From Variovorax sp. (GTDB lineage Bacteria > Pseudomonadota > Gammaproteobacteria > Burkholderiales > Burkholderiaceae_C): a stretch of DNA of 64,000 bases. The stretch is taken from positions 9,213-73,212 of the forward strand of contig JAYUSD010000154.1 in the NCBI GenBank assembly GCA_043755865.1. Reading direction: 5' to 3'. The notes beneath the pieces were generated by a model. It worked only from the letters and a program-made list of their open reading frames with translations. It did not search any database and was not told the origin of the DNA. Positions 3,009 to 60,609 of the stretch are shown piece after piece. A program made the translations under genes and the position numbers. The first letter of the stretch is position 1; each line of letters opens with the position of its first letter.

Positions 3009-3051
3009 CAGCCGGCATGAAATATGCGCAACATGCTATTTATTTAATAGC
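3009..3051 (-). repeat. 43-bp dispersed element copy spanning the fdhC start codon
   Basis: Reverse complement GCTAT TAAATAA ATAGC ATGT TGCGC ATATTTCAT GCCGGCTG. Confidence 0.85.
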
Positions 3052-4225
3052 AACTGTGATGGGTTTGAGTTTAAGTTTGATGAGTCTATCTTGGGCGCAA
3101 AAGCTTCAAGTCGAGCCTGTGAAGCCGCCTGAGCAAGCTGCGCCTGCAGCGCCTGCGCTAGCTGAGGCGGGAGGCATCAAAAGCCAGAACATTTTTGAAG
3201 TCAAGCCGGATGCAAATCTTGATCCGAATTACGCCAAGCAAAGCAATGCCGAGCGAGCAAAAGTTCAACCCGGGAACAACGCGCCTGTTTGGCGGCAAGT
3301 TGGCCAGGGAGCAACGGGCGTCACGACGCTGCCCTACGCCCAAGCGCCCGAGGCAGGCAATATGGTGCAAAAGTTTGTGCAGTATCCCGGCTCGAATCTC
3401 ACCAATGCAGGCGAGGCTTGGCGTCAGGTTCGCAACAATTGGATTTTGCCCTATGGTGGTTCATTGATCGTGATCGCACTCGTCGCGCTTGCTTTGTTCT
3501 ATTGGAAAAAGGGCGCGATTGAGTTGCACGGCAAAGAAACGGGCAAGCTGATTGAGCGCTTCACTTACTTTGAGCGCGCGGCTCATTGGACGAACGCGAT
3601 TGCCTTTTGCTGCCTAGCGATTTCAGGCGTGGTGATGGCCTTCGGTAAGTTTTTCATGCTGCCCATCATCGGTGGCTCACTCTTCGGTTGGCTCACCTAT
3701 GCGCTGAAAAATCTACACAATTTTGTGGGTCCGCTGTTCGCTGTCTCACTTATCGTGGTCATCATTACTTTCGCTCGTGACAACATGCCCAGCAAAGACG
3801 ATCTGGTGTGGATGCTCAAAGGTGGCGGTTTGTTCAGCGGCGAAGAGGTGCCTTCGCATCGCTTCAATGCTGGCGAGAAGATCGTGTTTTGGGGTGGCGT
3901 ATTCCTGCTTGGCTTGATTGTGGTCGGCTCAGGATTGATGCTTGACAAACTGATCCCCGGCTTGATGTATTACCGCGAGACGATGCAAATATCGCACATG
4001 GTGCACGCGATCGCAGCCATCTTGATGGTGGCCATGTTTCTCGGCCACATCTACATGGGCACGATTGGCATGAAGGGCGCTTACAAGGGCATGAAAACGG
4101 GCTATGTAGACGAAACATGGGCAAAAGAGCATCACGCCATTTGGGCGGCTGATGTAGCCTCTGGCAAGATTCCTGCGCAGCGTTCGCCCGTTCCGAGCGG
4201 CTCTGTTGCTCCAGCACATTCATAA
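3017..4225 (+). CDS. fdhC: Formate dehydrogenase cytochrome b (gamma) subunit with N-terminal periplasmic extension
   Basis: ERFTYFERAAHW, LHNFVG, HRFNAGEK, HMVHA, HIYMGT and GYVDETWAKEHH are heme b subunit motifs. Confidence 0.92.
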   Translation: MKYAQHAIYLIATVMGLSLSLMSLSWAQKLQVEPVKPPEQAAPAAPALAEAGGIKSQNIFEVKPDANLDPNYAKQSNAERAKVQPGNNAPVWRQVGQGATGVTTLPYAQAPEAGNMVQKFVQYPGSNLTNAGEAWRQVRNNWILPYGGSLIVIALVALALFYWKKGAIELHGKETGKLIERFTYFERAAHWTNAIAFCCLAISGVVMAFGKFFMLPIIGGSLFGWLTYALKNLHNFVGPLFAVSLIVVIITFARDNMPSKDDLVWMLKGGGLFSGEEVPSHRFNAGEKIVFWGGVFLLGLIVVGSGLMLDKLIPGLMYYRETMQISHMVHAIAAILMVAMFLGHIYMGTIGMKGAYKGMKTGYVDETWAKEHHAIWAADVASGKIPAQRSPVPSGSVAPAHS

Positions 4226-4240
4226 ATTGAGGAGTTCGTC

Positions 4241-4633
4241 ATGTTGAAATCTGTTTTCGTTGTTGCAATACTCGCTATTTCAGGCGCTGCATTTGCCAAG
4301 TTACCCACACCTGTGCTCACTGAAGAAGCCAAGACCAAAGCTGCTGAAACCACAGCCAAAACGGCGCATGGCAACAAAGTTGCAAATTTTCAGTTGTGCA
4401 AATCCATGGATAAGACCGCTGCGCACTATTACAAAACGGCCAAAGCCAGCGGTAAAGATGCCAAGCCAGCTGTTGAGACGCCAGCTTGCGCTGATCCGGG
4501 TGCATTTGTATTTCCTGTGCCTGCAGCGCCGGTAGCCGCCTTAACGGGCGCGCCCGCTATAGCACTTGCGCCAGTCGCTTCAGTGGCAGCAGCCAAACCA
4601 GTGATTGCGCCAACAGCACCCGTCAAAAAATAA
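4241..4633 (+). CDS. Exported Ala/Pro-rich hypothetical protein, last gene before the fdh terminator
   Basis: Signal peptide ending AFA, GAGGAG RBS, two Cys. Confidence 0.75.
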   Translation: MLKSVFVVAILAISGAAFAKLPTPVLTEEAKTKAAETTAKTAHGNKVANFQLCKSMDKTAAHYYKTAKASGKDAKPAVETPACADPGAFVFPVPAAPVAALTGAPAIALAPVASVAAAKPVIAPTAPVKK

Positions 4634-4655
4634 ACCACTTCACACTGGACAAACG

Positions 4656-4680
4656 CGGCGCTACTCAAGCGCCGTTTTTT
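4656..4680 (+). terminator. Rho-independent terminator
   Basis: CGGCGCT-actca-AGCGCCG stem followed by TTTTTT. Confidence 0.75.
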
Positions 4681-4701
4681 ATGGCCGATTAGACTCAGCT
4701 C

Positions 4702-5553
4702 ATGCCTACCAACACGCTGCACCTCTCTTTATTGCCTCAACTCACTGAGGCTCGCGCACCTTTGATGCGCGAGGTGCAGGTCGTCAATGAAAAAGGCGAG
4801 AAGAGCACTATGCACATTCCTGCAGAGCGCGATCTGACGGTGTACGTCGATAAGCGCGAATTAGTGACTTTGATGACGCTCGGTGCGCACCCTGAATTGC
4901 TCGTGCTCGGCTTTTTGCTCAATCAGCGCTTAGTCGATAGCGCATCACAAATCGAATCGATCACCGTGGATTGGGACGTCAACTCGGCTGCTGTGAAAAC
5001 GCACTCGGGTATTGAAAGAATCGAGGAACGCACTGCTAAAAAGGTCGTGACCACCGGCTGCGGTCAGGGCAGTGTGTTTGGCGGTTTGATGGATGAGATT
5101 GACACCATCAAGCTTCCTGTAGCCACGCTGACCCAAACTCAGCTCTACGGCATTCTTGAGGCGATTCGCCAGCAGGAGAGTACTTACAAAAGCGCTGGCA
5201 GCGTGCATGGCTGCGCTTTGTTTAAAGGCACGCAGATGCTGATGTTTGTCGAGGACGTAGGCCGCCACAACGCGATTGATACGCTGGCCGGCTGGATGGC
5301 GATGCAAGGCATTTCTACACTGGCAAAGCCGATAGAAAACGAGCCTTATGTGTTCTACACCACAGGGCGATTAACCAGCGAGATGGTGATTAAATCTGCA
5401 CAAATGGGCATCTCAATCGTCGTCTCGCGCAGCGGCATCACGCAGATGGGCTACGACATTGCGCAGCAACTGGGGCTGTGCACGATCGGCCGGGCGGTGA
5501 ACAAGCATTTTGTCGGTTACACGGGCTTGCAGCGTTTAACGCTCGAAATTTAG
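4702..5553 (+). CDS. fdhD: Formate dehydrogenase accessory sulfurtransferase
   Basis: TTGCGQG, GSVHGCAL, EDVGRHNAIDT and TTGRLTSEMVIK motifs. Confidence 0.93.
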   Translation: MPTNTLHLSLLPQLTEARAPLMREVQVVNEKGEKSTMHIPAERDLTVYVDKRELVTLMTLGAHPELLVLGFLLNQRLVDSASQIESITVDWDVNSAAVKTHSGIERIEERTAKKVVTTGCGQGSVFGGLMDEIDTIKLPVATLTQTQLYGILEAIRQQESTYKSAGSVHGCALFKGTQMLMFVEDVGRHNAIDTLAGWMAMQGISTLAKPIENEPYVFYTTGRLTSEMVIKSAQMGISIVVSRSGITQMGYDIAQQLGLCTIGRAVNKHFVGYTGLQRLTLEI

Positions 5554-59625: not shown

Positions 59626-59649
59626 GAAGTGCTCCTGGGTTGAAAACGG

Positions 59650-59709
59650 TTGGTGAAAGGGTCGGTGAAAGGGTTGGTGAAAGATTTAGTGAAAGATTTA
59701 GTGAAAGTG
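59650..59709 (-). repeat. Five tandem 12-bp units (consensus NNCTTTCACYAA on the - strand) from the gntR stop towards the SBP RBS
   Basis: + strand reads TTGGTGAAAGGG TCGGTGAAAGGG TTGGTGAAAGAT TTAGTGAAAGAT TTAGTGAAAGTG. Confidence 0.9.
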
Positions 59710-60498
59710 GGCAGACAATTCTTTGCTGACCCAGACCTTGGCATCAATATTGCCAACGCGGGACAGTTGCATGACATATTCATATCGGTCTGGCCGATAC
59801 ATGCCATGCAGCCATTGCACAGGGCGGTCATTCACATCAAAAATCAATCGGCGCACAGCCAGCAGGGCGCTGCCCACGGCTATATCCAAATGCTGCGCGA
59901 GCTGCACATCGGCCAGCCGCGCGGAGATGGTTTGCTCGGCGCGCCCCACTTGCACGCCGGCTTCTTCCAGAAGTAGCAAAATCGGTTTCTTGCCCAATTC
60001 TTTTCGCCCAAAATGCGCGCCGATGGCTTTGGGGATGTAGGTGGTGATGTGGGAAAACGGGCCGGCTTCGGTACTGCGCACGCGTACGGCTTTTTGCACC
60101 GAGTCGCCCGTCGCAATTTGCAGCGCCTGTGCAATATCTTGCGATGCAGCGATGGTGCCCACATCCAGCACCTTGACCGATGTGGCCAAACCCATGGAGA
60201 CTAAGTTTTCAAGCAGGCCGGTGAGTTGCGCCTTGCGTGGCTGACCATCTTTGGCTTGAGACGCCGCGCCGGCCAGTGCGGCTTGGGTGGGCTGCGTGCC
60301 GCGCCCCGGTTGGCGGCTGATCAAGCCTTCTGCCGCGAGCTGCTCCAGCGCCCGCCGCACCGTCACGCGCGCCACGCCAAACTGCTGCTGAAACGCCAGC
60401 TCGCTGGGCAAACCCGCTTTAAATATTCCCTCGCGCAACTGCTCTCGCAAGACCAAATAGATTTGGTGGTACTTGGGCAGCGGCATGACAGCGGACAT
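59698..60498 (-). CDS. GntR-family regulator, HutC/UTRA subfamily
   Basis: LPSELAFQQQFGVARVTVRRAL...GRGT HTH; C-terminal UTRA-like AEQTISA...YRPDRY. Confidence 0.94.
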   Translation of the reverse strand: MSAVMPLPKYHQIYLVLREQLREGIFKAGLPSELAFQQQFGVARVTVRRALEQLAAEGLISRQPGRGTQPTQAALAGAASQAKDGQPRKAQLTGLLENLVSMGLATSVKVLDVGTIAASQDIAQALQIATGDSVQKAVRVRSTEAGPFSHITTYIPKAIGAHFGRKELGKKPILLLLEEAGVQVGRAEQTISARLADVQLAQHLDIAVGSALLAVRRLIFDVNDRPVQWLHGMYRPDRYEYVMQLSRVGNIDAKVWVSKELSAHFH

Positions 60499-60521
60499 GC
60501 GTTTATCTTAAGATCTGTTTT

Positions 60522-60543
60522 ATTGTCCTGTCAATAGGACAAT
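60522..60543. promoter_or_regulatory. Probable GntR operator
   Basis: Perfect ATTGTCCT-N6-AGGACAAT palindrome 24 bp upstream of the gntR start; TGT...ACA core typical of GntR sites. Confidence 0.7.
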
Positions 60544-60566
60544 CGTGAACAATGAATAACCATCTC

Positions 60567-60609
60567 GCTACTAAATACATAGCAGATAACGCAATAAATA
60601 CGCCGGCTA
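60567..60609 (+). repeat. 43-bp dispersed element copy in the gntR promoter region
   Basis: GCTAC TAAATAC ATAGC AGAT AACGC AATAAATAC GCCGGCTA. Confidence 0.9.

Follow-up and report, generated by a model that had tools for sequence, protein, structure and literature searches.

The window analysed here is a stretch of 64,000 nucleotides (C154:9213-73212) from the assembly of a Variovorax sp. (G000; 3.65 Mb in 239 contigs). Genes for proteins such as an acyl-CoA dehydrogenase (ACAD), a glutathione S-transferase (GST)-like protein, an EamA transporter and a TctC-family receptor lie in it, and within and between them the window carries many copies of a dispersed DNA element of fixed length. The original prediction had listed 14 copies of a 43-bp pattern. 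The window was scanned with that pattern in IUPAC code, allowing up to 2 mismatches, with 100 dinucleotide-preserving shuffles as the null. The scan returned 16 copies against 0.00 expected in shuffles; all 14 listed copies were recovered, and those at 15246 (+) and 46759 (+) are additional. A hidden Markov model (HMM) was built from the 16 window copies and run over the whole assembly at E < 1e-3, which gave a total of 1,020 copies, corresponding to about 1.8% of the DNA and one copy per 3.6 kb. The occurrence in both orientations and the fixed spacer lengths, both noted from the window, hold across the genome: 501 copies lie on the plus strand and 519 on the minus strand, and 1,013 of the 1,020 have no net length difference from the HMM.

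The genome-wide logo carries information from about position -1 to position 66, so the looser tail of about 20 bp described earlier is real; the unit measures about 66 bp and the 43-bp pattern is its core. Its consensus is GCTATTAATTTAATAGCACTCTGCGCAGATTCTATGCCGGCTAACGGCCTATTTTGCTTAAAAAT, in which the blocks follow in the order GCTAT-N7-ATAGC, GCGCA, GCCGGCTA, GGCC and an A-rich tail, with A/T tracts between them. Conservation reaches 99-100% at positions A15, G16, C17, G39 and G40, the spacers are almost unconstrained apart from being rich in A/T, and the information content amounts to about 60 bits over 66 bp. The A/T-rich tracts are centred near positions 9, 31, 53 and 63, at intervals of about 22, 22 and 10 bp, which are multiples of the helical turn. 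The copies in the window are listed in Table 1.

Table 1. Copies of the 66-bp element in the window; all were located by the scan described above ("pattern scan")
Coordinates	Strand	Location	Remarks
2986..3051	-	Start of gene for downstream signal-peptide protein	Antisense frame gives ATG (3017) and first codons MKYAQHAIYLIA; orthologous copies in G010 and G007
5545..5610	-	Between two co-oriented genes	Tail overlaps stop of ORF 4702-5553; orthologues in G010 (AACGGC) and G007 (AACGGG)
8417..8482	+	Intergenic	Pattern scan
15246..15311	+	Acyl-CoA dehydrogenase gene, aa 593-614	Apparently replaces native sequence of the C-terminal domain; alignment with 8r1e continues through it, with only a 3-residue gap
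16917..16982	-	Intergenic	Occupied in G010, G007 and G001 despite flank indels
18920..18985	+	GST-like gene, aa 248-269	Linker also in homologues of 32-36% identity, there 3 residues shorter
26750..26815	-	N-terminal extension of TrmB ORF	True start uncertain; Pfam and orthologous-site comparison
32358..32423	+	Intergenic	TGAGC variant; 15 bp from start of 1,617-aa ORF
33469..33534	-	Amine oxidase-like gene	ATAGC to TGAGC, the change by which other copies read in that frame lose their in-frame TAG
41837..41902	-	Antisense in EamA transporter gene	Encodes LLAGKDIALAAILSVA
45380..45445	+	Directly 3' of stop of ORF 44802-45380	ACTCC 5' variant; followed by unrelated ~300-bp repeat
46759..46824	+	N-terminal part of RluA-like ORF	Absent from the first list; true start uncertain
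48296..48361	+	Intergenic	Pattern scan
49493..49558	-	FAD_binding_2 protein gene, aa 352-374	Pattern scan and Pfam
54940..55005	+	TctC-family receptor gene	Antisense frame encodes the signal peptide MLFKQNRRVAGVYIAQSAITLVA; Pfam
60567..60632	+	Intergenic	Followed by ~300-bp repeat; pattern scan

Placement and reading frames of the copies

Genes were called over the whole assembly with a purpose-written codon-log-odds finder (3,293 genes, 88% coding density), so that the following context numbers are approximate. Coding sequences contain 457 of the 1,020 copies (45%), against 83% of random 66-bp segments, while 230 copies cross a gene boundary (9% of random segments) and 333 (33%) are intergenic (8% of random segments); with this share inside genes, the family is not extragenic in the manner of repetitive extragenic palindromic (REP) sequences. 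Most of the coding copies (354 of the 457) lie at least 90 nt from either gene end. The earlier count of eight window copies inside genes was about right, since eight lie in open reading frames (ORFs) with Pfam domains, those at 15246 and 46759 included. Extragenic density falls from 1.5 copies per kb between convergent genes to 1.0 in tandem and 0.43 in divergent regions, compared with about 0.14 per kb in coding DNA, and copies adjoin stop codons at a median distance of 9-23 bp. The copies are thus found chiefly behind genes and, inside genes, in permissive parts.

The copies repel each other, unlike those in clusters of REP and bacterial interspersed mosaic elements (BIMEs): the coefficient of variation of the gaps between copies is 0.84, compared with 0.97 +/- 0.03 for random placement on the same contigs, and only 9 gaps are shorter than 300 bp where 75 are expected, with even neighbour orientations.

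For each orientation the consensus has a single open frame, and 368 of the 457 copies within genes are read in it, giving AINLIALCADSMPANGLFCLK in the forward and IFKQNRPLAGIESAQSAIKLIA in the reverse direction, and the copies in other frames carry exactly those changes that remove a stop codon (ATAGC to TGAGC, GGCTAA to GGCGAA). Conserved positions are kept at the expense of codon usage. Of 131 forward copies, 83 have ATA as the fifth codon of the element, compared with 3.6% of isoleucine codons genome-wide, and in the reverse copies ATA occupies two codons in 81 and 88 of 166; GCT is found in 166 of 166 cases, compared with 20% of alanine codons genome-wide. Because the conserved positions are maintained with rare codons, the constraint acts on the DNA and not on the peptide. 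In two window copies (2986-3051 and 54940-55005) the antisense frame makes up the N-terminal part of a signal peptide, and the start codon of the first of these is also derived from the element.

The in-gene copies were set against 357 kb of G030, a genus that lacks the element, and against four syntenic regions of 40 kb from outgroups. For about 23 of the roughly 37 comparable copies, the G000 protein is 7-28 residues longer than its G030 orthologue and in many of them the gap coincides with the element; these look like cassette insertions, many of them of 14-28 residues. About 14 other cases differ by at most 3 residues. The element segment of the ACAD protein (ATKSGALHAGITPAIQYFY) aligns with native sequence in all outgroups and with a solved homologue (PDB 8r1e; Table 1), it lies inside a continuous match to the Pfam family Acyl-CoA_dh_C, and two other genera carry their own dialect of the element at the same site. 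The segment of the GST-like protein aligns likewise, with the 3-residue difference given in Table 1, to homologues from a gammaproteobacterium and from Sphingobium. On these alignments, the ACAD and GST copies appear to overwrite native sequence and are two secure cases of almost no length change. Both routes thus probably exist, with most in-gene copies added as a unit and some replacing permissive native sequence.

The same acyl-CoA dehydrogenase gene contains a second repeat, a REP-like G+C-rich palindrome at 14535-14600 (+) that adds 22 codons (SPTVRPEPVEGQEASTSARTVV) to the reading frame. None of the genus relatives and outgroups examined has this palindrome, which seems to belong to another element family and to have been inserted in frame recently.

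Orthologous sites and lineage dialects

The genus is represented by 15 species genomes. Most are metagenome-assembled genomes from glacier streams that carry the labels Variovorax, Comamonadaceae or Brachymonas, and one is that of the isolate Variovorax sp. PCZ-1 (G022). Syntenic regions of 75 kb from G010, 22 kb from G007 and 40 kb from G001 were compared with the window, the species being about 20% diverged. All 11 window sites with mappable flanks are occupied in each relative in which they were examined (G010, G007 or G001), in-gene copies included. Orthologous copies of G000 and G001 share 93% identity at 17 core positions, compared with 62% at 25 spacer positions and 63% in the 40-bp flanks, while the spacers of random non-orthologous copies are 37% identical, so that the copies compared are truly orthologous. 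The core evolves much more slowly than its surroundings, and the copies are of old date, having been passed on vertically at fixed positions in the chromosome.

There is no sign of current copy-and-paste activity. Among 1,002 G000 copies no identical pair was found; the best pair matches at 62 of 66 positions, and the nearest-neighbour median is 52, compared with 49 in a column-independent simulation. Recent copy-and-paste spread was rejected on this absence of near-identical copies. No flanking direct repeat exceeded expectation for k = 2-8 at any boundary, which gives no indication of target-site duplications, and no terminal inverted repeats were found, the sole inverted repeat being the internal 5-bp dyad. 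A search for a clean empty site that would define the element ends gave none, the sole candidate being a rearranged intergenic region. There the element is present in G001 and G010, the site is rearranged in G000, and G000 and G007 have an extra small gene and no element.

At this site G001 (C43, near 30642) and G010 (C30, near 51305) have ACTCC-variant copies, of the type found at 45380 in the window. On the other strand the variant reads GGAGT, which in both genomes sits 7-8 nt upstream of the ATG of a thiolase-like gene, and the element appears to supply the Shine-Dalgarno sequence of that gene.

The 3' block of the element exists in lineage dialects. When copies of the strict pattern ending in GCCGGC and of the same pattern ending in AACGGG were counted per genome, the former prevailed in G000 (851 and 3), G001 (722 and 3) and G022 (709 and 4), the latter in G010 (99 and 376) and G007 (180 and 270), and the two were nearly balanced in G003 (45 and 52). 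Seven of the 11 orthologous G010 copies have AA at positions 36-37 where G000 has GC, and the G010 sites keep their own spacers, with 57% identity to those of G000. Since the sites keep their own spacers, the block has been retuned in place at hundreds of loci and not replaced by new insertions.

Two causes of the dialect change were considered and rejected. Restriction avoidance behind the shift from GCCGGC to AACGGG does not agree with the frequency of GCCGGC outside the element, for which the observed to expected ratio is 0.89 in G000 and the counts are 21 versus 31 in 75 kb of G010. A C5 methyltransferase tracking the dialect, by analogy with the cyanobacterial highly iterated palindrome 1 (HIP1), is contradicted by G022, which has the GCCGGC dialect without such a gene. 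In the G000 genome as a whole, GGCGCC (observed/expected 0.36) and CCGCGG (0.20) are much rarer than expected, which does not apply to GCCGGC and TGCGCA; the scarcity of GGCGCC and CCGCGG may reflect restriction avoidance.

Beyond the genus, a family sample of 61 genomes was examined, one per genus and including G000. The strict pattern was absent from 26 other genera. Its 5' half, GCTAY-N7-RTAGC-N5-RCGCA, was found in 20 of the 61 genomes with 4-349 copies each, compared with 0-3 for a control pattern, and other genera have the same layout of about 66 bp with other 3' blocks; G024 and G028, for example, carry GGCGCTTG-N6-CAAGCGCC followed by GGCC and an A/T tract. BLAST searches of plasmid and phage collections gave no element matches, and 2.9 million viral contigs yielded 3 single matches.

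Reading of the element and rival explanations

An RNA-level role, as a terminator, mRNA stabiliser or small RNA, could explain why many copies lie just 3' of stop codons and between convergent genes, but we regard it as very improbable. The GCTAY-N7-RTAGC dyad is, as had been noted, the only strong symmetry of the element, and it shows no compensatory variation: in every candidate pairing, the palindromes TGCGCA and GCCGGC included, Watson-Crick or wobble pairs are as frequent as independent columns would give, and at the dyad pairs (4,14) and (5,13) Watson-Crick pairs are observed at 0.73 and 0.65 and expected at 0.74 and 0.67. The minimum free energy of 200 copies was only 2.3 kcal/mol (less than one standard deviation) below that of shuffles on either strand, so the element does not fold as a REP-type sequence does, and no base pair occurred in more than 39% of the predicted structures of these copies. 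A search of the window against Rfam at the gathering threshold gave 0 matches. The copies show no preferred orientation relative to transcription, with 229 same-sense and 228 antisense copies in genes and a ratio of 147:138 between co-oriented genes. Mutual information over all column pairs lies mostly between adjacent columns (TTT/AAA at 52-54, AT/TA at 29-30), and at positions 52-54 the A-tract and T-tract are interchangeable (TT 577, AA 351, TA 20). An exchange of this kind, in which TA steps are avoided, would be expected if duplex DNA were read by the shape of its minor groove. A hairpin or RNA element was rejected on the lack of covariation, of excess folding energy and of an Rfam match, together with the exchangeable tracts. 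A replication-strand signal like Chi or the FtsK-orienting polar sequences (KOPS) was also rejected, as no strand bias against the GC skew of the contigs was seen in G000. The earlier preference for a DNA-level site of fixed geometry over a REP RNA hairpin therefore stands, on the missing covariation, the weak fold, the unbiased orientation, the exchangeable tracts and the rare codons; the part of it that called for a binding protein found no counterpart.

Candidate partner proteins were sought among transposase-like and competence genes. G000 has three Y1_Tnp genes, which resemble REP-associated tyrosine transposases (RAYTs), and Y1_Tnp occurs in all 17 other element-positive genera compared with 27 of 43 negative ones, a weak enrichment. 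In 8 genera the conserved single-copy Y1_Tnp gene has no element, as judged by the dyad, within about 2.5 kb. Only one G000 paralogue, on C142, is near copies of the element, a cluster of 5, all in direct orientation and embedded in larger repeats. A REP-RAYT type of linkage was rejected, given the weakly enriched phyletic pattern and the lack of adjacency for the conserved type. The C142 locus is itself unusual: at C142:19767-22928 four spaced composite repeats of about 220-520 bp, each containing one 66-bp element, lie upstream of the RAYT-like gene (287 aa), a fifth element lies downstream, short GGCCGCAAGG and GGGTCAGGTCTTTCA repeats stand directly upstream of the gene, and a near-identical paralogue is found on C54. 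ComEC is present in G000 and in 58 of the 61 genera, with or without the element. In G028 (C1:1836740-1837544) it is matched by three consecutive Pfam pieces in different frames and looks frameshifted.

We give about an even chance to the reading that the element is a double-stranded DNA signal of fixed 66-bp length, read by a putative sequence-specific protein and maintained site by site. Core-specific conservation at orthologous sites, in-place dialect shifts, even spacing and a constraint that overrides codon usage are beyond what the decay of a dead transposon can explain and call for a sequence-specific process that is still acting. The lack of structure, the equal use of both orientations and the shape-like A/T tracts suggest that the reader is a protein or complex spanning about six turns of bent duplex DNA. 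Such a reader would contact the four G+C blocks on one face of a segment bent through its helically phased A/T tracts. A directional force tied to the reader would keep the sites at consensus and let the consensus drift between lineages, be it through biased transmission of the sort known from DNA uptake sequences or through selection on a function of the whole chromosome. The elements would first have been seeded through insertion, by a process of which no activity is now visible. The dialects shifted at hundreds of sites together, and an array of sites that benefits the host would lose every one of them with a single change in specificity; the dialects would therefore be better explained by a drive or by a reader-writer relationship than by host selection on each site.

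Several points weigh against a signal maintained in this way. No reader protein was found among the candidates checked (Y1_Tnp and ComEC), and ComEC, with its presence regardless of the element, is uninformative as a discriminator. The roughly 23 insertion-like copies in longer proteins mean that an insertion mechanism must once have existed, and the fall in density from convergent through tandem and divergent to coding DNA, known here from approximate gene calls, is also expected from random insertion filtered by selection. The closest relative has 84% DNA identity and all relatives are at least 16% diverged, so that recent gain or loss lies outside the comparison. The length of 66 bp also departs from that of classical uptake sequences, which have 9-12 bp and originate through point substitutions.

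A selfish non-autonomous mobile element, resembling miniature inverted-repeat transposable elements (MITEs), REP doublets (REPINs) or Rickettsia palindromic elements (RPEs), would explain the blocks as transposase binding and cleavage sites and the in-gene copies as tolerated in-frame insertions. The many in-gene insertions of 14-28 residues relative to G030 fit this, as does the combination of the density gradient and stop-codon adjacency with insertion and purifying selection; the copy number of a given dialect varies 20-fold among species, Y1_Tnp has the genomic and phyletic presence described above, and one RAYT-like paralogue adjoins the 5-copy cluster. We nevertheless consider this main rival unlikely. 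The element lacks terminal inverted repeats, target duplications and hairpin covariation, and no identical or near-identical copies exist among the 1,002, where active REPIN or MITE families have many. Decaying selfish copies would not keep 93% identity in the core against 62% in the spacers, nor shift dialect in situ with their own spacers retained. Of 11 testable sites, 11 are occupied in species 20% diverged. At least 2 copies overwrite native coding sequence with almost no change in length, the conserved RAYT-like gene stands apart from the element in 8 genera, and the spacing is more even than random and not clustered.

Within the signal reading, a special case is a DNA uptake signal, in which biased uptake during competence and homologous recombination would drive loci towards the consensus. 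It agrees with the equal frequency of orientations, the even spacing, the lineage dialects changed site by site at orthologous positions, some in-gene copies that occupy permissive coding sequence without insertion, the presence of ComEC, and the near absence of the element from viral contigs (3 matches) and from plasmid and phage collections; helically phased A/T tracts are also a feature of the extended uptake signal of Haemophilus. We hold this case to be doubtful all the same. The content of about 60 bits over 66 bp is far above that of any known uptake signal, most in-gene copies resemble cassette insertions, ComEC is equally present in genera without the element, and neither competence nor an uptake bias is known to be established in this clade. 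A broader and equally tentative proposal is that the Comamonadaceae carry an unrecognised class of genome-wide 'self' DNA signal, a 66-bp composite site that would co-evolve with a protein machine under biased transmission.

Relation to known systems and neighbouring repeats

The family shares traits with several known systems. DNA uptake sequences, known as uptake signal sequences (USS) in Pasteurellaceae and DUS in Neisseriaceae, are likewise present in about a thousand copies in both orientations, evenly spaced and in permissive sites within genes, have dialects at orthologous positions that evolve site by site, and have A/T tracts phased beside a G+C core. Unlike their 9-12 bp core, the element has 66 bp with four blocks and is mostly cassette-like in genes, and membership is not claimed. 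As with RPEs, copies lie in frame in many unrelated housekeeping genes, at the same sites across species and with no linked transposase, but RPEs are palindromic and 100-150 bp long, whereas the element is 66 bp long, has no stem and is about 20 times more numerous, shows core-specific constraint and dialect shifts, and sometimes replaces native sequence. REP/BIME and REPIN-RAYT families resemble it in their high copy number, their position after genes or between convergent genes, vertical inheritance, a species-specific consensus and RAYT-like genes in the genome; the element differs from them in having no hairpin covariation, REPIN doublets or identical master copies, in having about 45% of its copies in coding DNA, and in that the RAYT-like genes are not flanked by it in the usual inverted arrangement. 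HIP1 of cyanobacteria is also a DNA-level motif with lineage variants that selection or drive maintains inside and outside genes, but it is an 8-bp palindrome linked to methyltransferases, and here the presence of a C5 methyltransferase does not track the dialect.

The literature was searched by words and by sequence strings, and no description of the element was found besides motif pairs given by Tong, Schliekelman and Mrazek in 2017 (PMC5217627). These authors listed two spaced motif pairs in Comamonadaceae as potential novel motifs of unknown function. GCTTAT(N)5AAGCG of Acidovorax ebreus has 114 copies, of which convergent regions contain 44 and divergent regions 4, and ATAGCT(N)22CAAAAG of Polaromonas naphthalenivorans has 125 copies, of which 14% lie in genes. 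The pairs have, like the element, fixed spacing and variable spacers and lie mostly near gene ends or between convergent genes. The A. ebreus pair, as GCTT-N7-AAGCG, matches the central palindrome of the related element in G024 and G028, a match established for this pair only. Their report differs in treating two pentamer pairs only, with no 66-bp unit, coding copies, conserved sites or dialects. The earlier statement that the element has no published name was thus nearly right, in that no description was found, with the qualification that one of the unexplained pairs corresponds to a related element. Among bacterial interspersed DNA elements and signals the family is a new variety, being RPE-like in its invasion of genes and like uptake sequences in its evolution.

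The family is of interest because about 2% of the genome of a free-living bacterium, including segments of several hundred proteins, is shaped by a constraint at the level of DNA. It unites traits otherwise found separately, namely the gene invasion of RPEs, the dialects and even spacing of uptake sequences and the gene-end placement of REPs, and related forms occur in 20 of the 61 sampled genera of an ecologically dominant family. Identification of the reader would bring to light a system of uptake or self-recognition, a protein that organises the chromosome or a mode of repeat maintenance, in each case a new one. On the practical side, the element lengthens and distorts alignments of proteins and gives rise to apparent insertions and signal peptides, and it could be used as a lineage marker in metagenomes. 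If it were a 'self' signal, it would constitute a third independent uptake-like drive after those of Pasteurellaceae and Neisseriaceae, with by far the largest motif, and this drive would be strong enough to replace coding sequence, to create signal peptides and to force rare codons upon hundreds of housekeeping genes.

Two further repeat families were seen in the window. A repeat of about 300 bp, with about 12-14 copies in the genome, follows 66-bp copies at about 45449-45760 and 60640-60940; as most of its copies are without the 66-bp element, the two are separate families that are sometimes adjacent. The gap between ORF 17005-18021 and the GST-like gene contains, at about 18025-18200, an element of about 170 bp that is present at dozens of loci in G000 and in other species of the genus, and that is palindromic, since it matches both strands.

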